Positions 8,531 to 28,307 of a stretch of DNA of 64,000 nucleotides are shown piece by piece. The notes below the pieces were generated by a model. It saw nothing but the letters and a program-made list of their open reading frames with translations. It was not told where the DNA came from and ran no database searches. This DNA comes from Euglena gracilis (taxonomy: Eukaryota). Both the position numbers and the translations under genes were made by a program. The first letter of the stretch is position 1, and each line of letters begins with the position of its first letter. The stretch is from assembly GCA_039621445.1 (NCBI GenBank), contig CP154954.1, positions 17,452,589 to 17,516,588 on the forward strand, read 5' to 3'.

Positions 8531-8562
<32 letters not shown>

Positions 8563-11112
8563 TGATTGGTATGGACGAGGAATTCTAGGAATGGGTGGCG
8601 GTGGGTGGGGATGGGAGGGGATGGGAGGGAGGTGGGGGGGTGCCGCAGAGGGGGGAGGCCTCGCACGGTTTTCACGCCCACCTCCAGCCGGTGCGGCCCG
8701 AACTGGAGGGCCGGAGATACCAGCTCCGGCAGGCCGGGGGTGGCACACCTGCGATGTCGCCGCCTCCGCGTCCGTGCTGGTCATGGTCTCCTTCTGCCGC
8801 CGCTGCCGCCGCCGCCCGCCGCGACGATGGCCTTGAAGGGGATCCCACGGGTTGGGATGAGAGGGGATCGGAGGGGGGCCGGCCCTTGCCTCCCTCTCTC
8901 TCTCTCTCTCCCCTCCGCGGTGGTCTCGATGTGGTTGGGGGCTCCGACTCCCCCGACAGTGGCGTTGAGCTTGACATTTTTCCTGCAGCTTCTTCAGCTC
9001 CGCGCTCAGGGCGGAGATGGTGTCCGCCATTCTCTTGATCTCCTTGTGCAGGGCAGCCCCTCGCCTGCTCTGCACCGGCGTCCATACGTCGCCTTCTTCT
9101 CTTCTGCCTCTTGCTTCATCACGGGGTTGGTTGCCCTGCGCACTCCCAGGGCGAGAGGGTCTTGTAGATCTCATGGCGCTTGAACTTTGTGATTCCCCAG
9201 GGCGGTGCCCACGGGTCGATTCCCTGTTGGGTCGCCAAGGGGCTTGGGGCCGGGGCAAATCCCGCTTCGCTTGCTCCCCTGCGGACGGGGTTGGCGGGGC
9301 ACAGGCACCACGCTGCCTGCCACCCGCCCGGACTTGGCTCGGTCTCGCTCCGGGGACGTGGCTCCCAGAGGGTTGGTGGCCCTGGGGGGGGCCGTGGGGG
9401 TGGCGCCTTGGACCGGGGTGGTCGGCCTCCCCGATCCTGGCACCTTCATGCCAGTCGTGCGTCTGGCGCTCGAGGTCCGCGGGGCGCTCGACGTTCTGGG
9501 CTGCTGCGGCTTCTTGCCATTCTTGGATGATGCTCCGCCGCTGGGGGCCGCACGAGGCCCAGACCTGGTTCTGCAGGTCCGGGTCCCATGATTCGTACAT
9601 GGCTTGTCCTCGTCCTGCTTGTCGTGGGTCCTTCAGCACCGCCTTCCACTCTTCGTACTTGGCTCGCCACTCGGCAGGCCACTCACTCAACGAAGTGAAC
9701 TTCCTCTTCTTCGTGGGGCCTTGGGAAGAGGTGTCGTCGTCGGTGGTGTCGCTGGGTGGCGGCGGGGGAGCGGTGAGGAGGAGGCGGTTGGGGGCCTCGA
9801 TGGCGGGAATGGGGAGACCTTGGAGGAGGGCCAAGGAAGACGAGGAGGAGGAGGAGGGGCCGATGGTGAGGGTGTGGAGATGCACATTCTGCACGATGGA
9901 GGGGGGTTGTGGCGGGGAGGGTGGGGGGTAGTGGGGGTTGGGTGCCCGGGCCTCCACGGGGACGGGGACGGGCATGGGGACCCGGACCTCCACGGGGACT
10001 TGCACGGGGACCGGGACGACCCGCTCGATGACCCGATCCACGAAGACAGGCTCCCGCACGGGAACGGGGACCTGCCTCTCGACGATGACGACCCGCTCCT
10101 GGAGGACCTCACGGGTGGGTGGGGGGAGGCATGGGGTTGGGGAGGCGGAGTCCGGGTTGGAGAGAGGGGGGCCTTGGGAGGCTGTGGGGGCCGTTGGGGC
10201 GCTGGGGGATTGGGAGGCGGTGCTTGGCTGCGCTGCAACCCCCTCGAGGGCGTCCGTCTCTGTCTCCATGGCCGTGGGCTGGCAACTCTCAGGCCCGCCC
10301 GGGCTCCCCGGGGGCGAGATCCTTGGCGGCGTCACCCCCGGTTCACCGCCCAGCGTAAACCCCGCTCCGGTGTGGGCCAGCCTGTCGCTTGGGGCGTCCC
10401 CCCTCGGCTCTGAGGCCGGTCCTGGCAGCACGATCACGGACCCGCCCGGGCTCCCTGGGGCTGAGATCCTTGGCGGCGTCACCCCCAGTTCACAGCCCGA
10501 CGTAAACCCCGTCACGGTGTGGGCCAGTCCGTGGCTCGGGGCGTCCCCCTCGCTGTCCTCAGGCCCGCCCGGGCTCCCCGGGGGCGAGATCCTTGGCGGC
10601 GTCACCCCCGGTTCACCGCCCAGCGTAAACCCCGCCCCGGTGTGGGCCGGCCTGGTGCTGCGGCTGTTTGGGGCGTCCCCCTCCTCTTGACTGATTGGTA
10701 GAGGCTCGCCCGGGCTCGCCGGGGGCGGGATCCTTGGCGGCATCACCCCCGGGTCCTTGCCCTTGCTGCTCACGAATTGGGCGCACCTCACCTCTGGGGC
10801 GTCCCCCTCTCTGAGCCCTGGCCAGTGGACGGATCGGGACGCTCCTCTCGGGGCCTGCTGCTTGCCGTGGCGCACGTGGGCCTCCCGGTCGATGATCATC
10901 ACATCCACGTCGGAGGCCTGGGAGGCGGAGGGGGAAGGGGGCGGCATCATCTCGGCCAGCAAGTCGTCGATGCCCCCGGGGAGGGGGGCGGGGTGGCCGA
11001 AGACGGAGAGAAAGTCGGCCTGGGAGGGGGCATGGGCCTCATCGAGGGGGAGGGCTGTGGCCCATGGGGCTGGGGGAGCGCGGTGGGGGCTGGAGTGGAG
11101 CCACTTCCACAC
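8531..11112 (-). CDS. PLE post-RT extension: Pro-rich repeats, PVPV repeat, Trp-rich helical module, 2A-like motif, coiled coil; no stop inside the element
   Basis: Part of the 912-aa open frame 8374..11112; copy B shows WKWLHSSPH is in frame with RT; blocks EWPAEWR, WDxxLQxQVWA, HDWxEGxRIGEAxxPGP and NPWxPLQ are conserved in the divergent family 2 element. Confidence 0.7.
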
Positions 11113-12943
11113 CTTGGAAAACCAGGTGCGGAGCTCACGGACGCGGATGTCGGTGGCATGCCAGCGCTGGAAGAGGAAGGAAGCGGCTCCACACCGACTG
11201 CACCAGGCGGCGAGAGTACCCCCGCCAGATGGCGTTGCGGAAGATGTTGGCCACTGACTGCTTGAAATCCCCCATGTGGCTGCAGGCCATCCGGGCGAAC
11301 TCCAGGCGGCCCATGATGACCCCGCCCAGCTGCTCGGTGGGGGCGGTGGTGGTGGCTAGGGGGTAGCGAACAATGTGGTGGGGGTACTCCTCCTCCCGGT
11401 CGTGGACGGTGGTGTGCACCACGCGGTCCCCGTTGGAATGGCATTGGATGTACACCCGGACGCCCAGGCACACCACGGACTCGCCGGAGCCGGTGGTCTT
11501 GTACTCCATGCCGTACTCGGCTGCCGAGGGGAGGGGCATGGTGGTGGGGTGGACGATGTCGTCGATGTATCGGGACACGGCGGAGGACCGGAGCTGGGGA
11601 GGGAGGGCGTACATGTGGTCGCGCTCCACGGGGTAGCAGGCCAGGTTGGCCAGCTGCGGGGCCGGGGGGAGGCCCATGGGCATGCCCCGGATCTGGCGCC
11701 GGACCCTTCCGCCATTGCAGGTGTAGTTGTTCTGCACCGCCACGGCCACCAGCTCCTTCAGGTCATCCAAGGAGTAGCCGAGGCCATCCCACGACCAGCC
11801 GCCGGTGGTGAGGGACGGTGGGGTGGCGGGGTCCACCCCAGCGGGGGTCTTGGTCTCCCGCACGAAGGCCCAGGCCTCCTTGGCCGACTCCATGGTCCGC
11901 TCGATGATGGCGTCGAAGGTGAAGGCCGTGTACATCGTCGTGAAGTCCGCCGTCTCCAAGCCCCCCGCCAGGATGTCCTTGGAGTGGGTTCGGACCATCC
12001 GGACGAAAGACTCCACGCTGTCGATTCCCCAGAACGCCTTGATGCCCTCCTGCTGTTGCCGCCGCTCGTCCTTTTCCCGGAGGGCGACCTCGATGTGCTT
12101 CAGGAGCGACACCAAAGCCTTGCTCAGGGCATAGAGGGGCTGCCGGGGGGGCTCCTTGGAGGCGGTGGGGGCGGAGGCGGGGGCGGACTCAGAGGCGGGG
12201 GCGGGGGACCCGGGGTCGGGATCGGGGTTCTTGCGGGTCCCGGCAATGAACCGGAACTTCTTCTTCGCTGGCTTCCAGATGCCGTAGTTGTAGACGACAC
12301 CGGCGCCAGTGGGGAAGTGCAACCGCTGGTTGACCTCCGACAGCCGGGCAACCACCTCCCTCCAGGTGTCGGTCACGTCCTCGAACACGGTGGAGTCCGC
12401 CAGGTAGGTGGCCATCTGCTTCTGGTACCAGCGCTTGCAAACGAACATCAGGCCGTGGGGGGCCCGGTCGTCGTGGAGGAAGACGAGGACCTGGTGGGCC
12501 TCCCGCATTTGCTGTGACAGGCCCGGGAAGCCGGTGGGGACCAGCTCTTCTCTGACGGCCGAGCACCGCCAGTTGGTGGTGCAGCGGGCCTCCACGGCGT
12601 CGGCCCACTCGCCCAGCTTCCGGAGGTAGGTGGCGTCGGTGGGGTTGCTGCGCGCTGCCCACTCGGTGTACTGGTTCAGCGCCCGGCGGAGGTCGTGGAG
12701 GACGGTGTCGGGGGGGCCCTCCAGCCGGAACTTCTTCCCCTTGGCCGCCAGGGTTTGCAGGTACGACCATCGCAGCAGCTCGGACTCGTTGCTCACCACG
12801 TGGCCCTCGTGGAAGGCTGCCGGCTCCTTCCGGCGGAGGGCTGTGTGGCACTGGCAGCCCTCGAGGTCGTCGGCCTGCGCGGCGGCCACGTCCAGCTCGC
12901 TGGAGACCTGGGCGTAGTTGCACAGCCACGCCTGCCATTGCGG
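8531..12943 (-). mobile_element. Penelope-like retroelement family 1, copy A (5'-truncated, 3' end in (GA)n)
   Basis: Near-identical reverse complement of ~24313-29235 (without the MITE found in copy B); PLE-type RT motifs; ends ...CCAATCAAGAAGAGAGA(GA)n, seen as the TC run at 8531-8558. Confidence 0.9.
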
Positions 12944-12946
12944 CAC
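11135..12946 (-). CDS. PLE reverse transcriptase domain (copy A, N-terminally truncated)
   Basis: ADFTTMY, IRGMPMGLPPAPQLANL, RYIDDI, CLGV and upstream DDRAPHG (position of the PLE DK motif); frameshift near 11180-11210 relative to copy B. Confidence 0.88.
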   Translation of the reverse strand: MPQWQAWLCNYAQVSSELDVAAAQADDLEGCQCHTALRRKEPAAFHEGHVVSNESELLRWSYLQTLAAKGKKFRLEGPPDTVLHDLRRALNQYTEWAARSNPTDATYLRKLGEWADAVEARCTTNWRCSAVREELVPTGFPGLSQQMREAHQVLVFLHDDRAPHGLMFVCKRWYQKQMATYLADSTVFEDVTDTWREVVARLSEVNQRLHFPTGAGVVYNYGIWKPAKKKFRFIAGTRKNPDPDPGSPAPASESAPASAPTASKEPPRQPLYALSKALVSLLKHIEVALREKDERRQQQEGIKAFWGIDSVESFVRMVRTHSKDILAGGLETADFTTMYTAFTFDAIIERTMESAKEAWAFVRETKTPAGVDPATPPSLTTGGWSWDGLGYSLDDLKELVAVAVQNNYTCNGGRVRRQIRGMPMGLPPAPQLANLACYPVERDHMYALPPQLRSSAVSRYIDDIVHPTTMPLPSAAEYGMEYKTTGSGESVVCLGVRVYIQCHSNGDRVVHTTVHDREEEYPHHIVRYPLATTTAPTEQLGGVIMGRLEFARMACSHMGDFKQSVANIFRNAIWRGYSRRLVQSVWSRFLPLPALACHRHPRP

Positions 12947-13249
12947 CCCCTCCCCCAGGGGTTGGTGCTACGACCCCAGGACCGGCGGCTTAATTTGGGT
13001 ACTCACGCCCCAAGCCTTCGGGTGCCGTCCGTATTTTTCGGCAATTTTTGCCTCTTTCCACACCGAAAGGGCCTTGTCTCGCCCTCCCCAAAGGGTGCTG
13101 TCCCGGAGGGTGCCCCGTAGGTAGTGGACCATTTTTCCGTCCCGCGCTGCCTTGTTTTTGGGGCCGGTTTTTTTCAGCCCCCCCCCTCCCCCACCCCCGG
13201 GAGGGTGACGCAGAGCTCGTTTGTAACGGTCTGCACCACACAGACAAGA

Positions 13250-13322
13250 GCGGTCGGGGACGAGGGTTGGCAGGGTCGTCACCCCTGACGATGCCCCACC
13301 TGCCAGCCTGGGGCGAAACCGC
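13250..13322 (+). ncRNA. Type III hammerhead ribozyme (unit 1)
   Basis: Stem III GCGGT/ACCGC, GTC cleavage triplet (cut after 13255), stem I GGGGACGA/TCGTCACCC, core CTGACGA (13285-13291) plus one extra T, stem II GCCCCA/TGGGGC, GAAA (13315-13318); loops I and II are complementary. Confidence 0.9.
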
Positions 13323-13909
13323 AACACAGACTGACAACACACGCGCCCACACCGACTGACAACACACTTCCCCCACAAGCACACACTCTCGGGTCGGCAA
13401 GGAGTTCCCCCCAAGGAGTTCCCCCAGCAACACCGATTCAGAAGAGAGATTTACGCAGTGACCCTGCGTCCCATGGAGCTTTCCATGGCATTTTTCCCAG
13501 AATTGCATGGCGCGGTTGTTTCGCACCCCCATGCCTCGCCCCCAGCGCCCCATTTTGTGGGCTAAACCCGCGGCAGTTCTACTGAGCAACCGGCGGCTCA
13601 GGCCACCCCCTCCCCCAGGGGTTGGTGCTGCGACCCCAGGACCGGCGGCTTAATTTGGGTACTCGCGCCCCAAGCCTTCGGGTGCCGTCCGTATTTTTCG
13701 GCAATTTTTGCCTCTTTCCACACCGAAAGGGCCTTGTCTCGCCCTCCCCAAAGGGTGCTGTCCCGGAGGGTGCCCCGTAGGTAGTGGACCATTTTTCCGT
13801 CCCGCGCTGCCTTGTTTTTGGGGCCGGTTTTTTTCAGCCCCCCCCCTCCCCCACCCCCGGGAGGGTGACGCAGAGCTCGTTTGTAACGGTCTGCACCACA
13901 CAGACAAGA

Positions 13910-13982
13910 GCGGTCGGGGACGAGGGTTGGCAGGGTCGTCACCCCTGACGATGCCCCACCTGCCAGCCTGGGGCGAAACCGC
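13910..13982 (+). ncRNA. Type III hammerhead ribozyme (unit 2)
   Basis: Same sequence as 13250-13322. Confidence 0.9.
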
Positions 13983-14570
13983 AACACAGACTGACAACAC
14001 ACGCGCCCACACCGACTGACAACACACTTCCCCCACAAGCACACACTCTCGGGTCGGCAAGGAGTTCCCCCCAAGGAGTTCCCCCAGCAACACCGATTCA
14101 GAAGAGAGATTTACGCAGTGACCCTGCGTCCCATGGAGCTTTCCATGGCATTTTTCCCAGAATTGCATGGCGCGGTTGTTTCGCACCCCCATGCCTCGCC
14201 CCCAGCGCCCCATTTTGTGGGCTAAACCCGCGGCAGTTCTGCTGAGCAACCGGCGGCTCAGGCCACCCCCTCCCCCAGGGGTTGGTGCTGCGACCCCAGG
14301 ACCGGCGGCTTAATTTGGGTACTCGCGCCCCAAGCCTTCGGGTGCCGTCCGTATTTTTCGGCAATTTTTGCCTCTTTCCACACCGAAAGGGCCTTGTCTC
14401 GCCCTCCCCAAAGGGTGCTGTCCCGGAGGGTGCCCCGTAGGTAGTGGACCATTTTTCCGTCCCGCGCTGCCTTGTTTTTGGGGCCGGTTTTTTTCAGCCC
14501 CCCCCCCTCCCCCACCCCCGGGAGGGTGACGCAGAGCTCGTTTGTAACGGTCTGCACCACACAGACAAGA

Positions 14571-14643
14571 GCGGTCGGGGACGAGGGTTGGCAGGGTCGT
14601 CACCCCTGACGATGCCCCACCTGCCAGCCTGGGGCGAAACCGC
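14571..14643 (+). ncRNA. Type III hammerhead ribozyme (unit 3)
   Basis: Same sequence as 13250-13322. Confidence 0.9.
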
Positions 14644-15230
14644 AACACAGACTGACAACACACGCGCCCACACCGACTGACAACACACTTCCCCCACAAG
14701 CACACACTCTCGGGTCGGCAAGGAGTTCCCCCCAAGGAGTTCCCCCAGCAACACCGATTCAGAAGAGAGATTTACGCAGTGACCCTGCGTCCCATGGAGC
14801 TTTCCATGGCATTTTTCCCAGAATTGCATGGCGCGGTTGTTTCGCACCCCCATGCCTCGCCCCCAGCGCCCCATTTTGTGGGCTAAACCCGCGGCAGTTC
14901 TGCTGAGCAACCGGCGGCTCAGGCCACCCCCTCCCCCAGGGGTTGGTGCTGCGACCCCAGGACCGGCGGCTTAATTTGGGTACTCGCGCCCCAAGCCTTC
15001 GGGTGCCGTCCGTATTTTTCGGCAATTTTTGCCTCTTTCCACACCGAAAGGGCCTTGTCTCGCCCTCCCCAAAGGGTGCTGTCCCGGAGGGTGCCCCGTA
15101 GGTAGTGGACCATTTTTCCGTCCCGCGCTGCCTTGTTTTTGGGGCCGGTTTTTTTCAGCCCCCCCCCTCCCCCACCCCCGGGAGGGTGACGCAGAGCTCG
15201 TTTGTAACGGTCTGCACCACACAGACAAGA

Positions 15231-15303
15231 GCGGTCGGGGACGAGGGTTGGCAGGGTCGTCACCCCTGACGATGCCCCACCTGCCAGCCTGGGGCGAAAC
15301 CGC
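15231..15303 (+). ncRNA. Type III hammerhead ribozyme (unit 4)
   Basis: Same sequence as 13250-13322. Confidence 0.9.
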
Positions 15304-15881
15304 AACACAGACTGACAACACACGCGCCCACACCGACTGACAACACACTTCCCCCACAAGCACACACTCTCGGGTCGGCAAGGAGTTCCCCCCAAGGAGT
15401 TCCCCCAGCAACACCGATTCAGAAGAGAGATTTACGCAGTGACCCTGCGTCCCATGCAGCATTTTTCCCAGAATTGCATGGCGCGGTTGTTTCGCACCCC
15501 CATGCCTCGCCCCCAGCGCCCCATTTTGTGGGCTAAACCCGCGGCAGTTCTACTGAGCAACCGGCGGCTCAGGCCACCCCCTCCCCCAGGGGTTGGTGCT
15601 GCGACCCCAGGACCGGCGGCTTAATTTGGGTACTCGCGCCCCAAGCCTTCGGGTGCCGTCCGTATTTTTCGGCAATTTTTGCCTCTTTCCACACCGAAAG
15701 GGCCTTGTCTCGCCCTCCCCAAAGGGTGCTGTCCCGGAGGGTGCCCCGTAGGTAGTGGACCATTTTTCCGTCCCGCGCTGCCTTGTTTTTGGGGCCGGTT
15801 TTTTTTCAGCCCCCCCCCTCCCCCACCCCCGGGAGGGTGACGCAGAGCTCGTTTGTAACGGTCTGCACCACACAGACAAGA

Positions 15882-15954
15882 GCGGTCGGGGACGAGGGTT
15901 GGCAGGGTCGTCACCCCTGACGATGCCCCACCTGCCAGCCTGGGGCGAAACCGC
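15882..15954 (+). ncRNA. Type III hammerhead ribozyme (unit 5)
   Basis: Same sequence as 13250-13322. Confidence 0.9.
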
Positions 15955-16070
15955 AACACAGACTGACAACACACGCGCCCACACCGACTGACAACACACT
16001 TCCCCACAAGCACACACTCTCGGGTCGGCAAGGAGTTCCCCCCAAGGAGTTCCCCCAGCAACACCGATTC

Positions 16071-16534
16071 AGAAGAGAGAGAGAGAGAGAGGGGGGAGGA
16101 GAGAGGAGAGAGAGGCGAGAGAGAGAGAAGATGAGAGGAGGGGGGGAGCCGGGAGAAGAAAAGAGAGATGGAGAGGGAGAGGGAGAGAGAGAGGGGAGGG
16201 AGGGGGGGAGGCGCGGTCGAGGGGGAGAGGGTGAAGAGAAGGGGGGGGGGGGGAGGGGGGGGGGGGGGGTGGGGGAAGGGGGGGGGGTGGCGACGGGGGG
16301 GGGGGGGGGGGCTGAGGGTGGGGGAAAGGGGGGGAAGAGAGGGGGGGGAACGCGGAGGGGCAGGGGCGGGGCAGAGAGGGGGGGCGGGGGGGGGAGGGGC
16401 TGTGGAGCGGGACGGGGGGGGGGTGGAGAGAGGGAGGTGGCGTGGAGGGGGTGGGGTGGAGGGAGAGAAGAGGGGAGGGGGGGTGGTGGGGAGGAAGGGA
16501 GGGGGGAGAAAGGGCGGTGGATGGAGCGGGAGAG

Positions 16535-16565
<31 letters not shown>

Positions 16566-16640
16566 CAGGGAGAGAGGAGAGAGAGAGAGAGAGAGAGAGA
16601 GGCGAGAGGGAGGGCGAGCGGGGAGGTGGGAGAGAGAGGG
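16071..16640 (+). repeat. Polypurine (GA/G-rich) tract
   Basis: Almost pyrimidine-free on the + strand; (GA)n and poly-G runs. Confidence 0.9.
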
Positions 16641-16859
16641 GGGTGAAGAAGCAGAGCAGGCGACAACGCTGCGATCGCAGCAGAAGAGGGGCGAAGGCGG
16701 AGAGAGGCCGAGAAGATGGTACGGAGAGAGAGGTGTACAAGCTCCACCCAGAGCCGGAGAGGGGCAAGAGAGAGCGGAGGTGGGCAGAGCCAGCAGAGGC
16801 ACAAACCCATGCAGAGAGCCGAGAGAAGAGGGGGAGAGACTGGGGACGCAGGTGCGACC

Positions 16860-19700
16860 GAACGCCACGCTGGTGGAGGGGCACGTCCTCTCCACAGACC
16901 CCGACGAGCTGGCGTCCCCGTACCTGAGGGAGATCCTCAGCAAGGGGAAGAAGTACCGCCTGCGGCTGCCCATCTCGTCAGTGCTGGCGCGCCTCGACGA
17001 CGGCCTCCGCCAGTACGTGGAGTACAAGACCAAGGCCCACCAAGACGACGAGGGCTACCGCACGGGCCTGCTGAAGTGGGCGGAAGCGGTGCGGGCACGC
17101 GCAGAGGCCCGCATCACGCAGGCGGCGAGGGAGCACCCCCACGAGCCAGACGGGTACCCCAACCTGCAGGAGCAGCTCAGCGCAGCCAAGAGGGCGCTGG
17201 TGTTCGGGCCGGAGGACAGGGCACCGCACGCCCTGTTCTTCGCCTGCGGGCGGCTGTTCGCGGCGAAGCTGCACGAGCGGCTAGAAGCGACCGGGGCATT
17301 CGTCCCAGACGCCCGCCCGCCGGCGGACCTGCTGGAGCAGATCAAGGCCCTGAACGACGAGCTGCAGCTCCTCCACCACCCACGGCTGCCATACCTCTAT
17401 GGAGCATGGAAGGCCAAGAAGCAAGCCTTCCGCTGGATTGCCGGGACGGCCCGGAACCAGGACGAAGGCGACCATGAGGAAGAAGAAGGAAAGCCAAAGA
17501 ACGCCCTCTCCGAAGTGGGCGGCCTCATGGTCAAAGTGCTCCAAGTGGTGATGGCAACCCTGCGGCGAAAGGACCGGGAAGCAGTGGGCAAAGGCAACAA
17601 GTCCCGCTACTGGATCATCGAGGACATCGATGAGTTCGTGCAGGAGTTCCGGGTGCTGGCGCAAAGCCGAGCGCTGAGCGCCGTGCCGTGGGCAACGTAT
17701 GACTTCACCACCATGTACGAGGCGCTGGAGCACGAGCACCTGGTGCACGGGGTGATGGCAGCGGTGAAGGAGGCCTGGGAGGAGGAAACCATCGGCAAAG
17801 CACGGGACACGGGCCAACATCCACGAGACGTGGACCTACGCCTGGGGGCAGGGGGCTGGCACGAGGCGGCCAAGGTGAAGGACGCCCCCGGAATGCCGTG
17901 GTTCACGCTGCCGAGGGTGGAGGACACCCTGCGCAAGATGCTGGCCAACCTGTACGCGGTGAACGGCGGGGTGGTGCGGAAGCAGCAAAAGGGAGTACCC
18001 ATGGGGCTGGAGTGCTCCCCGCAGCTGGCCAACCTGTACGCCTACGCCGTGGAGAGCAGGTGGGTGGACCGAACGGCACCGACCAACGTCCTGATGCGGC
18101 GGTACATCGACGACATCATCGTCATGGGACCAGATGCCCTCACCCCCGGGAAAGGGCTGCCCACCGAGGAGGACTACGGGATGCAGTACAAGTCCACCGC
18201 CGAGGAGCCCCACAGCCTCATCTACCTGGGGGTGCGGCTGTTCGTGGACGACCGCGGACAAGCCCACTCGGTCCTGCACGACCGTGCAGTGGACTACCCC
18301 ATCCGGGTGGACCGATACCCCGAGGGCACAACAGTGGCCAACCCAGCCCAGCTGGCAGGCGTCATCATGGGCCGGTTGGTGGCAGCCCAACGGACATGCA
18401 GCCGCATGGATCTGTTCCAAGACGCGGTGGCCGGCATCTTCACCCACGCGCATCGCAGGGGATACCCACGGAGAATGGTGCACTCCACGTGGACCCGGTT
18501 CCTGTGGCGGTACTGGGACGCGGCATCCGTCACCACGCGGGAACTGCGGGCGTGGTTCCACGACGCGTGGCGAAAGGTGACGGAAGCGGAGGAGGGGGGA
18601 CAGCGCAAGCCGGCCCCCAAGTGGCCAACGTGGGAAGCCCGCGTACCACTGCCGCGGGACAGTGGCAGGGGAACACCACAGCACCCACCACCGCGGGACG
18701 CAGCAGGGCACCAGGCAGCATGTGAGGGGACCCCCCAGCCCCAAGCAGCACAACGGGAGCCCATCGACGACCTCATCGACCTCACCACGCCACCGGGGTC
18801 CCCGCCACACGCAAGCCCAGGCGACGGGGAGCCGCAGGGCGGCTCCTCGCAACCAGCCAGCAGCTACCGCCCGATGGCACCGCCGCTGATACCGTACCCC
18901 CTCCCACCGAGCGGCAGGGGAGGGGTGGGGCCAACCAGGACCGGACGACCAGGACAGAGGGGGGCAGGGCAGAAAGGCAACATACCGCCGAGAAGGCCGT
19001 GGTCTTCACCGGTGTACCCCACGCGGGGGGCTGCCAGCTCGTCGTCGACTTGGGCCGAAAAGGCTGTGCGATGGGGCTGTCCGCCTTCCGAGTCGCTGCC
19101 ACTGCACGCCCCTCTCGCACAGGAGCGTGCAGTGGGGGGCGCACTCTCCCCACGAGCACAGCCACCTCACGTCCCTGTCGCCGAAACACGGTGCACAGCG
19201 AGCACACAGGAGCGGGAGGTGGCCGGCGCTTCCCCCACACCCACCACACAGACATCAGCGGCGACGCCAACCAGCCAGCAGCCACCAACAACCACAGTGC
19301 AGCAGCCGCTGCAAGTGGTCCAGGTGCCCCAACCGTACCCGGTGCCGGTGCCGGTGCCCACCCCCTGTCCCGTGCCGGTGTACGTCGAGCGCGTGGTGCC
19401 GGTACAGATCCCAGTGCCATACCACGTACCCGTGCCGGTGGTCGTGGAGCGCGCAGTGCCCACACCGTACCCGGTGCCGGTGCACGTGGAGCGCCTGGTG
19501 CCAGTGGAACGCCCACTCCCGCTGCCGTGGCTGGACACCGGGGCAGTGACCGCGCTGCTCCGGGGGGCGAGCGCACAGCTGCCCATGCCAGTCCAACGCC
19601 TGATCCAAGCGGTCAGCAGCACCACCGGGCCGACGAGGGCCCGGTGGCAGCGGGAGATGGGGCGACCACAGCCTTACCCGGCGGAAGGAGCAGTGGACCC
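16860..19700 (+). CDS. PLE family 2 reverse transcriptase and PVPV repeat region
   Basis: Inside ORF 16168..20736: EGHV..KGKKYRL, EDRAPHA, WKAKKQAFRWIAGT, DFTTMY, YIDD, QLAGVIMGRL, RRGYPRRMV all align with family 1. The coding frame appears to switch near 19630-19790. Confidence 0.8.
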
Positions 19701-19779
19701 CCAACGGGCACTGCTCGTCGAAATGGTGCGATGGATCTGGCAGCAGCAACAGCAGCAGCAAGAGAGCCGCCCCTCACCC

Positions 19780-22029
19780 ATCGCGCCACGCTGGCGATCG
19801 AAGACGCACCCACCGCAGCCACACCCACATCGCCCGCGGCAGGCACCACCCCGGCAGGAGCAGCACCACCACCAAGCAACAACCCACCACCACCCGCAAC
19901 GGAAGGGGCCAGCACCACCGCCACGCCAGCAGCACCAGGCAGCACCAGCCCCGCGCCCGCAGCAGCAGCAGCAAGCAGCACGCCGGCCCCACCAACACCA
20001 ACCACAAGCGCCACACCGCCACCGAGCGCCACCCCCACGCAGGAAGCACAAAGCACCACAGCCACCGAGGAGGCACCGGCAAGAAGCGACCCCATGGCCA
20101 CAGACCGACTCCTGGGCAACAAGCGCCCAGTGTCGGTGGTGGTGGAGGAGGCGGCCACACCACAGCCCACCGAAGGGGACGATGCCTCGCAGGCAACCCA
20201 ACCAAGCCAACGCAAGAAGAGGCTGTACACACGCTTGGCCGAGTGGCCGGCAGAGTGGCGGGAGCAGTACGAGCGGTTCAAGGCCACGCCCAAAGCAAGC
20301 GACCGCCACGAGATGTGGCAGGGGTGGGACCAAAGCCTCCAAGACCAAGTGTGGGCAGCCGTCGCCGACAAGCGGAGGGACGAGATCCGCCGATGGAAGG
20401 CGAGGGAGAACGAAGGCCCACCAACCCAAGCAGAAGGCCAAGCCAGAAGCACGCGAGAAGAGAGGCGGAGGTCCCACACCGGAGCGGCAGACGAAGGTGG
20501 AGAACCCACCAGCCACGACTGGCAAGAAGGCCAGCGCATCGGGGAGGCGAAGCAGCCAGGCCCAGAAGAGGAAGGGTCGGCAGCGGACCCCCCCGAGGGG
20601 CAAGCGGGGAGCCCAAAGAATCACCCGCGACCGGCCTGGGGCGGCTCTCCAGGGGTACCTGCCGATCACCGGCAGGGCGTGTCCCGGCACGCCGTCAATC
20701 GGGACCCCAACAAAACAGAACCCACCAGCACCATGAACACAAAAATCACAGGCATGCCAGGCAATGACGGCCTGCCCGGCGCAGAGGACCTCTGCCCCGG
20801 GTGGCAGGCGGGGCGCCAGCCTAAGAACCCGCAACCGATCTGGGGCGGATCTCCAGGGGTACCTGCCAATCACTGGCAGGGCGTGGCCCGACACGCCGTC
20901 AAGTGGGACGAAGGAGCAGAAGAACCGTGCCCCAGAAGCAGAAGCCAAGACCAGCACGACTGGAAGAAAGGGGCACGGATCGGGGAAGCAAAGAACCCCG
21001 GACCACCCCAAAGAGGGTACCAACAGCCCAACCCAAAAGGGGGGGCCCAGCGAGGAGGACAACAAACAGGAAAAGGACAGACACAGCCCAGGAAAGGAGG
21101 CAAGGGTGGCAAAGGAAACGTCACCCCACAAGGAAGCCGGCAGGGCCAACCCCAAGGAGAGGGCTGGCAAACAGCACAAAGCACCGGCCGAAAACGCCTC
21201 CAAAAGCGCCTCCAAGGGCTCCAACGGGCGCTGCAAGAAATGCAGCAAGAGCTCGACCAATGGCGGCAGAATCCGCCCCCGCAGCAGCAGCAGCAACGAC
21301 CGGACCTAAGGGACGACAACCCCTGGGCCCCCCTGCAGCCACAGCAACAACGCCGGGAGCGGAAGAGATCCATTGGGTTTGAACCCCCAAGCCGCCAAGC
21401 GAGCAGGCAGCCGCCAGAGCAACGAGGAGGACGCGGAGGACGGGGAGGACGAGGTCGTGGACGAGGCGACGGAGCCCAAGATCGACACGGCCATGGAGAT
21501 CCCCGAAACCCGCGTGCCGGGCACGGAACTTGCCAGCCGTGCCCGTCATGCGGGTACCAGAACGAGGTGTACCACGCCGACGGGGCCCTGGGGGGTGGGG
21601 GGCTCGCCGGCGGTGGCATCCCCGGGCCCCCGGGCCCTGGCGCGGGGTCCGGGGGTGGCGTGAAAGGCGTGCGGAGCCCATGGGGGGAGCGCCGCCCCCC
21701 CAGCACGCACGCACGCACGGGGACCGCCACACACCCACCAGCAGGCAAGGGAGGGGGAGGGGGAAGGGGCAGCCCAGCGCGCCAGACAGACGGGCATCCG
21801 GAGGACCGGCGGCCAAGGGAGGGGGGAGGGGGAAAGGGATGGGCAGCCCAGAGCGCCAGACAGACGGGCAGCCACCGGGGGACAGGAGGCCAAGGGAGGG
21901 GGGAGGGGGAAAGGGAAAGGCAGCCCACGTGGAGAGAGAGAGGGGGAGGGGAGAGAGGAGGACAGACAGAGGGGAGAGGGGGGAGAGGGAGGAGAGAGGG
22001 AGAGAGGGAGGAGAGAGGAGAGGAGAGGT

Positions 22030-22030
<1 letters not shown>
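19780..22030 (+). CDS. PLE family 2 post-RT extension with two 2A-like motifs and a coiled coil
   Basis: Frame of ORF 18999..22190: LAIEDAP, KKRLYTRLAEWPAEWREQYE, HDWQEGQRIGEAKQPGP, HDWKKGARIGEAKNPGP, LQKRLQGLQRALQEMQQEL, NPWAPLQ, GIPGPP; open into the (GA)n run. Confidence 0.7.
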
Positions 22031-22184
<154 letters not shown>

Positions 22185-22363
22185 CGCTGACCCCGGCACC
22201 TGAGAAGAGCAAGGGGAAGAGAAGGCTCAAGACGGGCCCAAGCAAGACGACCAAGAAGGGAGTGGGGAAAAGGCCGGTGAGGGTCCCCATGAGGAGCCCA
22301 ACCCCCCGTGCCGGGGCGACTCCCTGTCGACAACTTCTTCCGCGGAGTACGATGCAAGAGAAT

Positions 22364-22420
<57 letters not shown>

Positions 22421-22669
22421 TGACCACCTTCACGCCAAGGAGTGGGGCGAGTGGCCCCCGGGGTCCCCGCTCCTGGCAACCGGAGTTCCTGGGCCGTTCC
22501 TCGGGTGACGGCAGCACCCGAGGGCCATGCAACACGCGGAGCCGCTCTCCAGGTGGGTGCCCACGGGGCTTTATCTCGCCTGCCTGGATGGAGCCGTGGG
22601 TGGCCCTGAGGGTCCGCATACCCTTGGGTCCCATGACTCGCCCACCCGCGGAACATGAGCGCCCCGTCA

Positions 22670-22745
22670 CCAGGCGGTCTGCCCCCACCAGCCGGGCGTC
22701 GGGGGCATCGACAAGGAAGGCCCGGCTGGATCCGAAACCGCCTGG
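22670..22745 (+). ncRNA. Type III hammerhead-like ribozyme with variant core (TCGACAA)
   Basis: Stem III CCAGGCGGT/ACCGCCTGG, GTC site, stem I TGCCCCC/GGGGGCA, core TCGACAA (22708-22714), stem II GGA/TCC, GAAA; perfect 10-bp loop-loop complement CCAGCCGGGC/GCCCGGCTGG. Confidence 0.75.
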
Positions 22746-22764
22746 CTCTTTTACCGCTGTGTGC

Positions 22765-22829
<65 letters not shown>

Positions 22830-22841
<12 letters not shown>

Positions 22842-25800
22842 CAAGGGCCGGCCCCCCTCCGATCCCCTCTCATCCCAACCCATGGGATCCCCTTCAAGGC
22901 CATCGTCGCGGCGGACGGCGTCGGCAACGGCGGCAGAAGGAGACCATGACCAGCACGGACGCCGAGGCGGCGACATCGCAGGTGTGCCACCCCCGGCCTG
23001 CCGGAGCTGGTATCTCCGGCCCTCCAGTTCGGGCCGCACCGGCTGGAGGTGGGCGTGCAACCCGTGCGAGGCCTCCCCCCTCTGCGGCACCCCCCCACCT
23101 CCCTCCCCATCCCCTCCCATCCCCACCCCCACCCACACCCAGAATCCCCCGTCCATACCAATCAAGAAGAGAGATTTCCGCAGTCCCTGCGGCTCGGGGA
23201 GCTTTCCCCGGGGTCCACCGTGAATTGCCTGGCGAGGTTTCTCGCACCCCCAGGCCTCCCCCCGAGCGCCCTCCCGGGCAACCCTCTTCCCGAAGGCCCC
23301 CCAGGCCGTCCCACTCCCGTGATGACCGTGCCCTCCCCATCGCCGAGCCCTACGACAAGCACGACCCCCAGCCGTCCCGCCACCGCCGCAACGAGGGGCA
23401 GTGGAGCTGGCAGGACCACCTGCAGTGGATGCAACGCAGCTGGGGGCGGCGATCTTGGCGCAACAAGACCATGCGCAGGGTCCTGCAGCTCCGCTCCAGC
23501 GACTCAGCCAACGCCGCCGTGGACTGGGGCGACGTGGCCGCCCTGTGGGATGCCCCCGGCTGGATTTACGCCCTCTTCCACTTCCCCACGGGGCGACTGT
23601 ACGTCGGGCAGACCACCCGGAAGGTTTACAAGCGGGCCAAGGAGCACTGGTGGAGCCGGGGGCGCTGCGCCGACGCCCTGCACGACGCCCTGGCCAACGA
23701 CCCCACCCCCTTCTCCTTCCTCATGATCCCCATCGAGAGGCTCCCCTCACCCGACAGCTTCCCCCGGGCTGACCGCCGCGCCCTCGCCCGCCGGGATGCC
23801 CTCGCCCGCGAGCGCAAGTGGGTGGGCCTCCTCAACTCCATGTGGCCCCATGGCTTCAACGCCGCCTACCCCGGCTTCCCCGTCAGCCGGAAGGTGCTCC
23901 GCCGCCAGCACACCCTCCCCAGCCCCGATCCCGCCCCCACATCCCAAGGCGACCCCCCGCCCAGCCCCGACCTAACCAAGTGGCTCCGTCGCTGCCACCA
24001 AGGGGACTCCAGCGCCCTGGCGGAGGCACGCTCCTGGGGCAAGGCGCGGCTGTGTTCCACCCTGGACTGGCTGCAGCAGCACGTCCCGGACGACGAGCGG
24101 CGCTCCGGCCACCTCTCGCTGGAGTGCAAGCTGGTGGAGCTGATCAAGGCGAAGAGGAAGGAGGCCCCCGAGCGGCAGTTCCTGAAGTTCTCCTACTCCA
24201 ACAACGGCGCCCGCCACCTGGAGCTGCGCAAGGTGTTGCGGGAAGAGGCCGTCTACAAGCTCCACCCCAACCCGGACGTCGCCGCAGCCATCATGGTCTG
24301 CGACAAGTTCGCCCCGCAATGGCAGGCGTGGCTCTGCAATTACGCCCAGGTCTCCAGCGAGCTGGACGTGGCCGCCGCACAGACCGACGACCTCGAGGGC
24401 TGCCAGTGCCACACAGCCCTCCGCCGGAAGGAGCCGGCAGCCTTCCACGAGGGCCACGTGGTGAGCAACGAGTCAGAGCTGCTGCGGTGGACGTACTTGC
24501 AGACCCTCGCGGCCAAGGGGAAGAAGTTCCGGCTGGAGGGCCCCCCTGACACCGTTCTCCATGACCTCCGCCGGGCGCTGAACCAGTACACCGAGTGGGC
24601 AGCGCGCAGCAACCCCACCGACGCCACCTACCTCCGGAAGCTGGGCGAGTGGGCCGATGCCGTGGAGGCCCGCTGCACCACCAACTGGCGGTGCTCGGCC
24701 ATCAGAGAAGAGCTGGTCCCCACCGGCTTCCCGGGCCTGTCACAGCAAATGCGGGAGGCTCACCAGGTCCTCGTCTTCCTCCACGACGACCGGGCCCCCC
24801 ACGGCTTGATGTTCGTTTGCAAGCGCTGGTACCAGAAGCAGATGGCCACCTACCTGGCGGACTCCACCGTGTTCGAGGACGTGACCGACACCTGGAGGGA
24901 GGTGGTTGCCCGGCTGTCGGAGGTCAACCAGCGGTTGCACTTCCCCACTGGCGCCGGTGTCGTCTACAACTACGGCATCTGGAAGCCAGCGAAGAAGAAG
25001 TTCCGGTTCATTGCCGGGACCCGCAAGAACCCCGACCCCGACCCCGGATCCCCCGCCCCCGCCTCGGAGTCCGCCCCCGCCTCCGCCCCCACCGCCTCCA
25101 AGGAGCCACCCCGGCAGCCCCTCTATGCCCTGAGCAAGGCTTTGGTGTCGCTCCTGAAGCACATCGAGGTCGCCCTCCGGGAAAAGGACGAGCGGCGGCA
25201 ACAGCAGGAGGGCATCAAGGCGTTCTGGGGAATCGACAGTGTGGAGTCTTTCGTCCGGATGGTCCGAACCCACTCCAAGGACATCCTGGCGGGGGGCTTG
25301 GAGACGGCGGACTTCACGACGATGTACACGGCCTTCACCTTCGACGCCATCATCGAGCGGACCATGGAGTCGGCCAAGGAGGCCTGGGCCTTCGTGCGGG
25401 AGACCAAGACCCCCGCTGGGGTGGACCCTGCCACCCCACCGTCCCTCACCACCGGCGGCTGGTCGTGGGATGGCCTCGGCTACTCCTTGGATGACCTGAA
25501 GGAGCTGGTGGGCGGTGCAGAACAACTACAGCTGCAATGGCGGAAGGGTCCGGCGCTAGATCCGGGGCATGCCCATGGGCCTCCCCCGGCCCCGCAGCTG
25601 GCCAATCTGGCCTGCTACCCCGTGGAGCGCGACCACATGTACGCCCTCCCTCCCCAGCTCCGGTCCTCCGCCGTGTCCCGATACATCGACGACATCGTCC
25701 ACCCCACCACCATGCCCCTCCCCTCGGCAGCCGAGTACGGCATGGAGTACAAGACCACCGGCTCCGGCGAGTCCGTGGTGTGCCTGGGCGTCCGGGTGTA

Positions 25801-26265
25801 CATCCAATGCCATTCCAACGGGGACCGCGTGGTGCACACCACCGTCCACGACCGGGAGGAGGAGTACCCCCACCACATTGTCCGCTACCCCCTAGCCACC
25901 ACCACCGCCCCCACCGAGCAGCTGGGCGGGGTCATCATGGGCCGCCTGGAGTTCGCCCGGATGGCCTGCAGCCACATGGGGGATTTCAAGCAGTCAGTGG
26001 CCAACATCTTCCGCAACGCCATCTGGCGGGGGTACTCCCGTCGGCTGGTGCAGTCGGTGTGGAGCCGCTTCCTCTTCCAGCGCTGGCATGCCACCGACAT
26101 CCGCGTCCGTGAGCTCCGCACCTGGTTTTCCAAGGTGTGGAAGTGGCTCCACTCCAGCCCCCACCGCGCTCCCCCAGCCCCATGGGCCACAGCCCTCCCC
26201 CTCGATGAGGCCCATGCCCCCTCCCAGGCCGACTTTCTCTCCGTCTTCGGCCACCCCGCACCCCC
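22830..26265 (+). CDS. PLE polyprotein: N-terminal GIY-YIG endonuclease, Cys/His linker, RT (locally frameshifted)
   Basis: GWIYALFHFPTGRLYVGQT...RAKEH...ERKWVGLLNSMWPHGFN (23558-23860) matches the GIY-YIG pattern including R, H, E, N residues; CQCH...HEGH linker; DFTTMY; YIDD. The GMPMG motif is out of frame through compensating indels. EN-before-RT order is that of Naiad/Chlamys-type PLEs. Confidence 0.85.
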
Positions 26266-27787: not shown

Positions 27788-28307
27788 CAGGGAATTTCTT
27801 AAGGACCCCCCGGGGGGGGGGGGGGGTCCAGCCTCCGGCTGGCAAAAAGGCTGCTGGCTGGATTTGAGCTGCTGGCTGGACCCCCCCCCCCGGGGGGGTG
27901 GGGGGGGGGGGGGGGGGGGGGGGGTCCGGGGCTGGAGCGGGCTGGGCTGGGCTGGGTCGAGGAAAAACAAAATTTTCTAACACATTTTGGCCATTTTCGA
28001 CATTTTGATGGGTGGAGCTAGATCAAGGCTGGGGGGCTGTGATGGAGGGGCTGTGATGAGGGGGAAAAATGCAGGGATAAGTGAGCTGGACAGCCCGGTT
28101 GGCTGGCCGGCCTGCGGCCGGCTGGGCCGGCCTTCGGCCGGCTGGCCCGGCCTCCGGCCGGGCTGGACCCGACTTTATTTCACTCGACCCCCCGGGGGGG
28201 GGGGGCTCCCAGCCCAAATTTGGGCTGCTGGCTGGATTTGAGCTGCTGGCTGGCTGGACCCCCCCCCCCCGGGGGGTAGGGTACCCTCCGGCTTAAGAAA
28301 TTCCCTG
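27788..28307. mobile_element. hAT-like MITE inserted in PLE copy B
   Basis: Perfect 16-bp TIR CAGGGAATTTCTTAAG; 8-bp TSD CGCCAGAC (27780-27787, 28308-28315); copy A has the empty site. Confidence 0.93.

Follow-up and report, generated by a model that had tools for sequence, protein, structure and literature searches.

A tandem array with type III hammerhead motifs, related to neighbouring Penelope-like elements, in Euglena gracilis

Related elements in other hosts

Non-autonomous Penelope-like elements (PLEs) of the 'Chlamys' type, such as MRC1 of Chlamydomonas, are the described elements most comparable to the locus reported here. In the sections of Craig et al. 2021 drawn on here (PMC8557442), they are non-coding, carry pseudo-LTRs (pLTRs) or multicopy head-to-tail insertions, are similar at their 3' end to an autonomous family, and have inverted 5'-truncated copies and microsatellites nearby. 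Multicopy head-to-tail insertions are said there to be frequent among Chlamys non-autonomous elements, and adjacent inverted truncated copies are published as well; given these precedents, the array described below needs no RNA circle. The array occupies positions 12944-16080 of a 64,000-nucleotide stretch of Euglena gracilis contig CP154954.1, the whole of which we call the window. Like MRC1, it is multicopy and head-to-tail, is similar to an autonomous family at its 3' end, and encodes no reverse transcriptase (RT). It differs in possessing a complete hammerhead motif, whereas most Chlamys elements in those sections have no detected one, and in having, unlike the non-autonomous elements, about 100 nt of its 5' end in common with a PLE. 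Furthermore, (GA)n takes the place of the (CA)n and (C)n microsatellites named for Chlamys elements, and the host is a euglenid, where the hosts given are green algae, spike mosses and Physarum (PMC8557442).

Retrozymes provide a second point of comparison. According to the portions used of PMC7229834 and of the Li et al. 2026 preprint, metazoan non-LTR retrozymes likewise consist of non-coding units repeated in tandem, each with one hammerhead, and their mobilisation by PLEs has been proposed. Their hammerheads are of type I, however, in units of about 150-450 bp with a GC content below 50%, and their circular RNA has been demonstrated (PMC7229834, same portions), whereas the present array has a type III motif, a 660-bp unit, a GC content of about 62-65%, and as partner a PLE with an N-terminal endonuclease (EN). 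Plant LTR retrozymes are closer in having a type III hammerhead and a GC-rich, non-coding monomer of 600-1000 nt (Cervera et al. 2016, PMC4918200, in part). They are described, in the part of a preprint cited here (bioRxiv 10.64898/2026.07.22.740005), as having LTRs, PBS, PPT, 4-bp TSDs and a dependence on Gypsy, while our array is directly tandem, without LTRs, with PLE-type termini and a GA tail. Animal PLEs, for their part, have minimal hammerheads of type I, which are believed to work in dimeric form (Cervera & de la Pena 2014, PMC4209133); the motif found here, in contrast, has a stable, open helix III of 5 bp, and closed helices I and II.

Against this background, a tandem parasite of Chlamys type that bears a PLE-style hammerhead motif with type III topology would be new, the euglenid host is probably new for such a parasite, and the hybrid junction between parasite and helper is new. 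Within the open-licence PMC and bioRxiv literature, we found no publication on hammerhead-bearing PLE derivatives or retrozymes in protists, and no published report of permuted-domain PLEs in the Euglena lineage. The locus would extend these PLEs and their parasites to that lineage. It bears on the mobility of tandem repeats with hammerheads (non-LTR retrozymes) and on the role of hammerheads in PLEs, one PLE reconstituted in vitro having had no need of its ribozyme (PMC11167929, in the part used). In a protist that can be grown in culture, it also offers a small system for testing, which combines a young array, its five ribozyme motifs all identical, with a conserved RNA module restricted to the head-to-tail junction and with the parasite/helper hybrid junction.

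The array and the neighbouring elements

BLAST against the window and a five-row alignment resolved the array (+ strand) into a truncated unit of 506 bp followed by four full units of 650-661 bp. This amounts to 4.77 units with 98.0-100% identity between them, in good agreement with the initial annotation, which had reported some 4.8 near-identical head-to-tail units, a 5'-truncated first unit and an exact 3' end followed by (GA)n. The first unit (12944-13449) begins at unit position 155. The second (13450-14109) and fourth (14771-15430) are 660 bp long, the third (14110-14770) is 661 bp long, with an extra C within a C run, and the last (15431-16080) is 650 bp long, its second 5' hairpin being removed by a 10-bp deletion. 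Spacings of 660, 661, 660 and 651 were obtained in a repeat search; the array escaped TRF, whose longest period of 500 is shorter than the unit. Every unit ends in AGAAGAGAGA, the final copy of which, at 16071-16080, runs into (GA)n and then a degenerate G/GA-rich tract (16081-16650, + strand). At position 132 of the unit, the second to fifth units have A, G, G and A, respectively, where all four other runs compared have G.

In three contigs of RNA run X17, GA follows directly after the unit end. The 3' end is therefore common to other loci. In its truncated 5' end, its constant 3' terminus and its GA tail, the array bears the marks of retrotransposition, and the evidence supports its being a non-autonomous, hammerhead-motif-bearing retroelement related to the neighbouring PLE.

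Three PLEs flank the array. Copy A (8533-12943, - strand) is inverted and 5'-truncated, with no EN, an intact RT frame (P0001), and a 3' end with a (TC)n tail at 8533-8562; it is joined to the array bluntly, head-to-head, at 12943|12944. Copy B (23175-29235, + strand), 7 kb downstream of the array, extends over 6049 bp to 29223 and then has a (GA)n tail. It has a GIY-YIG motif at about 23561, a CxC motif (GCQCH) at about 24398 and a frame-shifted RT, and is preceded by a pseudo-LTR (22812-23174, + strand), which is a partial tandem copy, 99.7% identical, of its last 363 bp. Copies A and B are about 98% identical; the 2.1% difference was counted against reading the junction of A with the array as a single event. 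Element C (approximately 16846-22061, + strand) is a 5'-truncated member of a second PLE family, with 34% amino acid identity to A and 99% identity to a protein named by the Euglena gracilis transcriptome convention. On account of this match, a slime mould was rejected as host, which the leaf-litter and soil origin of RNA datasets had at first suggested. The locus thus shows several hallmarks of PLEs: microsatellites at the ends of elements, a pseudo-LTR, and an inverted 5'-truncated copy close by. A helper had been placed next to the array by the initial annotation. At the level of the family this stands, A abutting the array and B lying downstream of it, but both copies are defective: A has no endonuclease and the RT of B is frame-shifted, so that neither could act as helper.

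An AlphaFold model of P0001 (pLDDT 85) had telomerase RTs as all of its top 13 Foldseek matches in the PDB (E 5e-8 to 8e-6), TERT ranking ahead of group II intron RT. At the sequence level, the RVT_1 profile matched 15 of 20 relatives, profile searches of the RT against the PDB gave weak generic RT matches only, and phmmer of P0001 gave nothing useful. N-terminal to the RT, a GIY-YIG domain was matched in Pfam with E = 0.0014 and 19.3 bits, below the cut-off of 22.6, and in one of the nine relatives scanned. Profile search of this putative endonuclease region against the PDB returned no endonuclease match; a WIY...YVGQT motif and invariant R, E and N columns are visible in it. The linker that separates EN from RT contains the CxC motif, both cysteines of which (C325 and C327) are conserved without exception in the nine aligned sequences. 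Judging by the N-terminal GIY-YIG signal, the CxC motif and the predicted telomerase-like fold of the RT, the neighbours are PLEs of the permuted Chlamys type, which places them in the clade with N-terminal EN (Chlamys/Naiad).

The link between the unit and copy B is a block of 131 nt (13420-13550, + strand), made of the last 30 nt and the first 100 nt or so of the unit, which is 76% identical to the junction of B (23145-23271) and has three hairpins in common with it. The homology claimed earlier for about 100 nt of the PLE start is thus confirmed, and includes 30 nt of the 3' end. This junction module is contiguous only across a head-to-tail junction, and 4 of its 26 predicted pairs stay paired through two-sided changes. 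When one unit was compared by BLAST with the window, the module was the sole match outside the array. Most of the unit, including the hammerhead motif, has no match in B, and the family of B may therefore not be the true helper.

The hammerhead motif and a competing hairpin

A descriptor scan detected a type III hammerhead motif at 13910-13982 (+ strand) in the second unit, and identical copies at 13250-13322, 14571-14643, 15231-15303 and 15882-15954, which bears out, at the level of the motif, the claim of one hammerhead per unit. The 5' part consists of helix III (GCGGU/ACCGC), a GUC cleavage site with the cut predicted after 13915, and a helix I of 8 bp with a bulged A; then come CUGACGA, an extra U, a helix II of 5-6 bp, and GAAA. 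All core residues (C3-A9, G12-A14, A15.1-U16.1, H17) are present in the five units, with three flanking helices of which helix III is open. The extra U is inserted after A9, and the Rfam alignment, which covers the whole model (1-54), agrees in register. In a viroid hammerhead, a U at the corresponding position sped cleavage 3-4-fold (PMC3705267, in the part used). Both the extra nucleotide that is specific to PLE hammerheads and the G10.1-C11.1 pair are found in the motif. Cleavage would occur after 13255, 13915, 14576, 15236 and 15887, that is, 194 nt before the unit end. This matches the distance of about 195 nt given by the initial annotation and would leave the 3'/5' junction inside the cleaved monomer, as claimed there. 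Two loops of 12 nt are complementary over 10 nt (13925-13934 in loop 1, 13959-13968 in loop 2), which represents either a kissing contact or part of a competing long hairpin.

Chance matches to the descriptor were rare: 3 of 10,000 shuffled strand-scans gave any, and none reached the observed helix lengths. In Rfam searches, the whole window had no match that reached the gathering score, and a stretch of 1.5 kb had none with E<=10. For the 96-nt candidate alone, Hammerhead_3 (RF00008) was the best of 4227 families, with 16.8 bits (E = 0.19) compared to a gathering score of 48.5 bits; by Rfam score, the hammerhead is non-canonical. The type III scan of the window matched the array only, with no hammerhead in B or C, plus one weak site at 48997-48927 (- strand; helices of 5, 9 and 3 bp), which is probably a chance match. 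No match was found with the type I/minimal descriptor in the window.

The minimum-free-energy fold of the region is a long hairpin (13924-13969; -36.0 versus -25.5 kcal/mol for the hammerhead fold), in which the core box 13946-13952 is taken up by pairing with 13935-13941. It is conceivable, if somewhat doubtful, that the motif is no working ribozyme at all, and that the conserved feature is this hairpin, for instance as an element for RT binding or initiation, the hammerhead resemblance being a decayed relic or a coincidence. The difference of 10.5 kcal/mol and the sub-threshold Rfam score point in this direction, and so do the diverged variants, of which at least three were seen, among the matches listed, in contigs of RNA runs. 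Core residue U4 is lost or replaced in the deepest X17 contig (record 13), and an X12 contig has C in place of U16.1. Among the matches listed, a damaging core change is thus present in two of three diverged variants, so the core is not visibly under selection in those copies. The strongest covariation, a double change from G-C to A-U at 13929/13964, agrees with both folds alike; the hairpin also accommodates a change from U-G to U-A (13966), and G13935>A, which converts a G-U pair with the extra U13952 to A-U. An AC-rich stretch follows the hairpin, and according to the part of Frangieh 2024 cited here (PMC11167929), the RT starts in a stem-loop close to an AC-rich region. However, the hairpin accounts neither for helices II and III (the latter of 5 bp) nor for the 5' side of helix I (8 bp), the GUC site and GAAA, and these were found together, at the observed quality, in none of the 10,000 shuffles. 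The PLE-specific nucleotide and the G10.1-C11.1 pair are an additional argument for a hammerhead, and A13958>G together with T13969>C preserves the sixth pair of helix II. Another X17 contig (record 14) carries at least eight changes in the motif; among the changes listed, none is in the core and two double changes keep a pair. We favour a PLE-style type III hammerhead, which on sequence grounds would most likely trim multimers co-transcriptionally and later refold into the stabler hairpin.

Origin of the array

The array is, in our judgement, probably one multicopy head-to-tail product of target-primed retrotransposition, derived from a 660-nt non-coding parasite of a Chlamys-type PLE (N-terminal endonuclease). 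A source array would be transcribed into a multimer, and the RT of the helper would recognise the structured block of 131 nt, which is formed only where two units meet head-to-tail. It would start internally, at GAGAGA just upstream of the block, using a nicked TC-rich DNA end as primer; such a start would fix the 3' end at AGAAGAGAGA with a GA tail. Several units would then be copied, either from a multimeric template or by jumps between templates, until the RT stopped within a fifth one, where the truncation at unit position 155 is observed. Finally, the truncated cDNA end may have been joined to a second cDNA, made on PLE RNA with the opposite DNA strand as primer, which would yield the blunt head-to-head junction observed with copy A. 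We infer a single event at this junction, the alternative being independent nested insertions. For one animal PLE, the part of Frangieh 2024 used here describes cleavage and extension of both DNA strands, and internal RT starts on RNA spanning the pLTR-ORF junction (PMC11167929). Cleavage by the hammerhead is not needed for making the array.

The initial annotation had read the array as a rolling-circle cDNA: hammerhead-cut monomers of 660 nt would be ligated to circles, and the PLE RT would go round one circle several times from the internal GAGAGA. We regard this as unlikely and, as stated, unsupported. Each unit does have one complete hammerhead motif, and the junction module, lying inside the would-be monomer, would be intact on a circle. 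Tandem copies, however, do not imply circles, since multicopy insertions are known for the non-autonomous elements of a clade mostly without canonical hammerheads (PMC8557442, same sections). The series A, G, G, A found at position 132 argues against the copying of a single monomer circle, as it would be impossible from one monomer template without later events. The predicted circular monomer, with 58% of its bases paired, is not unusually stable (z = -2.0 for the plus strand, -1.4 for the minus strand), and not viroid-like in this respect. The head-to-tail joint was found in contigs of two metatranscriptomic RNA runs, which may be equally well explained by multimeric transcripts or DNA carry-over. 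Animal non-LTR retrozymes, argued to be PLE derivatives, do form circular RNAs (PMC7229834; bioRxiv 10.64898/2026.07.22.740005; both in part), but the PLE tested in vitro inserted without hammerhead cleavage, and no reads ended at its site (PMC11167929, in part). Distinctly unlikely, too, is a true retrozyme in a euglenid, that is, a self-cutting 660-nt RNA with a type III PLE-style hammerhead, circularised and copied by a Chlamys-type RT, with the fusion of array and copy A as one integration. If it were one, this fusion would record the extension of two DNA ends on parasite and helper RNAs, and be physical evidence for who mobilises retrozyme-like repeats.

Still another history seems highly improbable, namely that a PLE terminus gave rise to a single insertion or dimer, which then grew in place into an ordinary satellite by unequal crossing-over or replication slippage. 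Homogenisation could explain why the inner units are nearly identical, as well as the A, G, G, A series, and unequal-crossover amplification of retrozyme repeats is discussed in the part used of a 2026 preprint (bioRxiv 10.64898/2026.07.22.740005). Unequal crossing-over explains neither end of the array, however: the first unit is 5'-truncated and bluntly joined to a truncated inverted PLE, and the last stops exactly at the 3' terminus of the family, with its GA tail, as in other contigs.

Outside the window, the head-to-tail joint was present in all four runs compared, at the level of assembled contigs, which neither distinguish circles from multimers nor mark the ends of molecules. Possible signs of cleavage, namely an X18 contig end at 13919, an X12 truncation at 13919, and a rise in summed X12 depth from 13913, were set aside as contig-level features from too few studies. 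Pattern scans gave no match to the ribozyme module in metagenomes and none to the ribozyme pattern in viral contigs, and a protein-based metagenome scan gave three short RT-only contigs (L001-L003), without 3' ends. Three bacterial matches among genome contigs (L004-L006) were rejected, because their number was about that expected by chance, the sequence does not go on as a hammerhead in any of them, and BLAST showed no resemblance to the unit. The RNA datasets with unit-like contigs were from leaf litter and soil.

Tandem units and their hammerhead motif

The array, five non-coding 660-bp units placed head to tail at 12944-16080 (+), had been described in the initial annotation as near-identical copies with a 5'-truncated first unit and a fixed 3' end followed by (GA)n. 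This description holds. Blast of one unit against the window, together with alignment, gave four full copies of 98.0 to 100% identity and one partial copy of 506-507 bp. As delimited by alignment, the units, all on the + strand, are U1 (12944-13449, 506 bp, beginning at unit position 155), U2 (13450-14109), U3 (14110-14770), U4 (14771-15430) and U5 (15431-16080). Every unit ends in AGAAGAGAGA, and U5 runs from there into (GA)n, then into a degenerate G/GA-rich tract of about 570 bp. Repeat finding gave spacings of 660, 661, 660 and 651; TRF reports no array because its longest period is 500. Variation among the aligned units is minimal. Two G>A changes are confined to U1; U3 and U5 differ from the others in homopolymer length, 10 bp are deleted from U5, and unit position 132 reads A, G, G, A across U2 to U5.

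A self-written type III hammerhead descriptor was run on both strands of the window (128 kb of strand). An identical motif was found in all five units, in agreement with the one hammerhead per unit noticed earlier. From helix III (GCGGU/ACCGC), the motif leads through a putative GUC cleavage site (after 13255, 13915, 14576, 15236 and 15887) into helix I, which has 8 bp, a bulged A and a loop of 12 nt. Next come the core CUGACGA, one extra U, and helix II, which has 5-6 bp and likewise a loop of 12 nt, followed by GAAA. When the unit was dinucleotide-shuffled, any descriptor match arose in 3 of 10,000 strand-scans, and the observed helix lengths were reached in none of 10,000. Rfam gave no match at the gathering score for the whole window, and none at E <= 10 for 1.5 kb. 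With the 96-nt stretch alone, Hammerhead_3 was the best of 4227 Rfam families, at 16.8 bits (E = 0.19) compared with a gathering score of 48.5; the alignment spanned the full model in the register of the descriptor, the extra U being an insertion. Such a U after CUGACGA is not odd for a hammerhead of PLE (Penelope-like element) context, and according to a review, a U at the extra position of a viroid hammerhead increases the cleavage rate 3-4-fold (PMC3705267). The motif is probably a genuine PLE-lineage hammerhead; the chances that it cleaves in the array copies would be slightly better than even. The sole other descriptor match in the window, at 48997-48927 (-), near a third RT frame, has helices of 5, 9 and 3 bp and also an inserted base; this weak match is probably due to chance.

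Two observations, a competing fold and core changes in contig variants, speak against an active ribozyme. The MFE fold of the hammerhead region is a long hairpin (-36.0 kcal/mol, compared with -25.5 for the hammerhead fold), which pairs loop 1 (13925-13934) with loop 2 (13959-13968), and GUCGUCA (13935-13941) with the core box UGACGAU (13946-13952). When partial folds are extended from 5' to 3', helix I alone is the first to form, so that a window for co-transcriptional cleavage is conceivable. The contig variants listed include at least three diverged forms of the motif, from X12 and X17, two sequencing runs whose contigs carry the unit. In record 14 of X17 the core is intact and all 8 listed changes are hammerhead-compatible: G13929>A with C13964>T converts a loop-loop G-C into A-U, A13958>G with T13969>C converts the sixth pair of helix II from A-U to G-C, G13966>A turns U-G into U-A, C13942>T turns G-C into G-U, the bulged A is absent, and helix III has an insertion at its base. 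U4 is missing from record 13, the deepest contig of X17, and U16.1 is replaced by C in a variant from X12. The firmest covariation backs the pairing of loop 1 with loop 2, which is common to the hammerhead fold and the hairpin. In natural hammerheads, Watson-Crick pseudoknots of about 6 bp can replace the usual tertiary contact (PMC11300833); the 10 complementary loop nucleotides of the unit exceed those described in that source.

Over 13913-14000, a stretch with the hammerhead plus the AC-rich 3' part, summed contig depth in X12 and X17 was several-fold higher than elsewhere in the unit, and separate contigs joined a diverged version of this stretch to unrelated upstream sequence. Other families, the true helper perhaps among them, may have the 3' module of the unit in common with it.

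Penelope-like elements around the array

The GC-rich island that surrounds the array (about 8533-29235; GC 0.63-0.70, compared with 0.37-0.55 in the flanks) is a nest of related retroelements. Its 20.7 kb consist entirely of PLE-type pieces, with inverted copies of one family at the edges. Sequence comparison delimited element B at 23175-29223 (+), preceded by a pseudo-LTR at 22812-23174 (+), a 363-bp partial tandem copy of the B 3' end (99.7% identical). Copy A of the same family, at 8541-12943 (-), is the reverse complement of B 24314-29235 at about 98% identity, and is thus inverted and 5'-truncated. Element C, which starts at about 16846 (+), belongs to a second PLE family (34% identity) and is also 5'-truncated; over 16846-19774 it is 99% identical (969/976) to the database relative P0059, a transcriptome-derived protein named "EG_transcript_109", which indicates that the family of C is transcribed. 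In all 8 papers listed with this style of identifier, the subject is Euglena gracilis.

In B, the ORF order is WIYALFHFPTGRLYVGQT..., then a CxC motif, then the RT. The GIY-YIG match stays under the Pfam cut-off (E = 0.0014), and both cysteines of CxC are invariant in all nine aligned sequences. The RT has 52 matches, to assembly or metagenome proteins, and RVT_1 was matched in 15 of 20 RT relatives. The AlphaFold model of the RT of A has a pLDDT of 85, and in a structure search its 13 best PDB matches were all telomerase RTs. The neighbours match the Chlamys/Naiad clade as outlined by Craig et al. 2021 (PMC8557442) in domain order, CxC, pseudo-LTR, microsatellite ends and the presence of an inverted truncated partner. 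The helper element proposed to lie next to the array is there in that copy A adjoins it; A has no endonuclease, however, and the RT of B is frame-shifted within the conserved NGG..R.Q..GMPMG block, so that neither is able to help the array.

An open frame leads from the pseudo-LTR of B past the tandem junction and on into the frame of EN and RT (22655-26638; also 28602-29288), and in the protein relative P0056, 3'-region sequence is likewise fused upstream of EN; in this family, coding sequence may thus extend over head-to-tail junctions. Downstream of the B RT, a proline-rich frame of 630 aa (26088-27980, +) carries a conserved terminal block, ...SEWPAEWRAKYEEWK..., which recurs in P0056 and, close to the C-terminus, in P0059. 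This frame has no Pfam match, which points to an uncharacterised domain of these elements. A separate retroelement, with a 1224-aa open frame at 49695-53369 (-) (RVT_1, E = 2.3e-12), is apparently unrelated to the PLE cluster.

A GA tail is found on each 3' end regardless of element orientation: (TC)n at the far left, and (GA)n at the far right, after the array, after C and after two short fragments. Tails may thus be brought or made by the elements; alternatively, they may have been pre-existing target microsatellites. The two fragments (22181-22365 and 22418-22767), each with its own (GA)n end, lie between C and the pseudo-LTR of B and resemble 3' ends, truncated on their 5' side, from further families. 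They may have become stacked by inserting one after another into GA tails, or through successive template jumps within a single event.

The junction module and the origin of the array

The homology of about 100 nt to the PLE start reported in the initial annotation proved longer, as it includes 30 nt of 3' end: 13420-13550 matches 23145-23271 at 76% over 131 nt, that is, the last 30 nt and the first ~100 nt of the unit. This is the only match of the unit in the window outside the array, and the block is contiguous solely across the head-to-tail junction. Joint folding of the two junctions predicted three hairpins just 3' of the junction, with 4 of 26 pairs kept through two-sided changes; from two sequences, these paired changes are suggestive, no more. 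For an animal PLE, Frangieh et al. 2024 (PMC11167929) report that the RNA used as template has to extend over the pLTR-ORF junction, that the RT start is internal, that both DNA strands are cut and extended, and that hammerhead cleavage is dispensable in vitro. By analogy, the junction module of the unit fits this system. The deletion specific to U5 (15455-15470) takes out the second of the module's conserved 5' hairpins, which would make U5 a poor template if recognition by the RT depends on the module.

The locus combines 5' truncation, a fixed 3' end, a GA tail, tandem junctions and a blunt hybrid junction at 12943|12944, where A meets the array with zero filler and zero overlap. We propose a multimeric transcript as the template: the RT would bind its junction module, start at GAGAGA with a TC-rich primer, copy several units and halt within the fifth; the array cDNA would then be joined to a second cDNA, extended from the opposite DNA end along a PLE RNA. 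The order left flank, (TC)n, inverted A, array, (GA)n fits such two-ended priming. Nested insertions, one after the other, would leave an identical arrangement, and A differs from B by 2.1%.

As to the template, the initial annotation took the array for rolling-circle cDNA of a circular RNA, which now appears unlikely. Non-autonomous Chlamys elements "often" produce multicopy head-to-tail insertions, in the words of Craig et al. 2021 (PMC8557442), so tandem units need no circle. One monomer circle, moreover, cannot template A, G, G, A at position 132 without later mutation or conversion; this position is G in all four other runs. The circular monomer is also only modestly stabler than its shuffles (z = -2.0, 2 of 60 shuffles as good, 58% of bases paired), and its minus polarity gave z = -1.4. 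The head-to-tail joint was found in each of four runs examined, two of them metatranscriptomes, but joints in contigs are equally compatible with circles, multimers and DNA carry-over.

Novelty and distribution

In the open-licence PMC and bioRxiv literature, no paper on Penelope-like elements in Euglena was found; the single paper that mentions both deals with something else. PLE hammerheads, non-autonomous Chlamys arrays, retrozymes, and retrozymes as PLE derivatives are each published separately; as far as the literature searched reaches, their combination at this locus is new. The new elements are a tandem parasite that belongs with a PLE whose EN is N-terminal, a euglenid host, a PLE-style hammerhead with type III topology and complementary loops, and a hybrid junction between parasite and helper. 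Unit words were detected in 20 of 24 listed runs, from 13 studies and four coded organisms, and two environmental RNA runs accounted for about 55% of them. Their presence even in very small runs hints at a high copy number.
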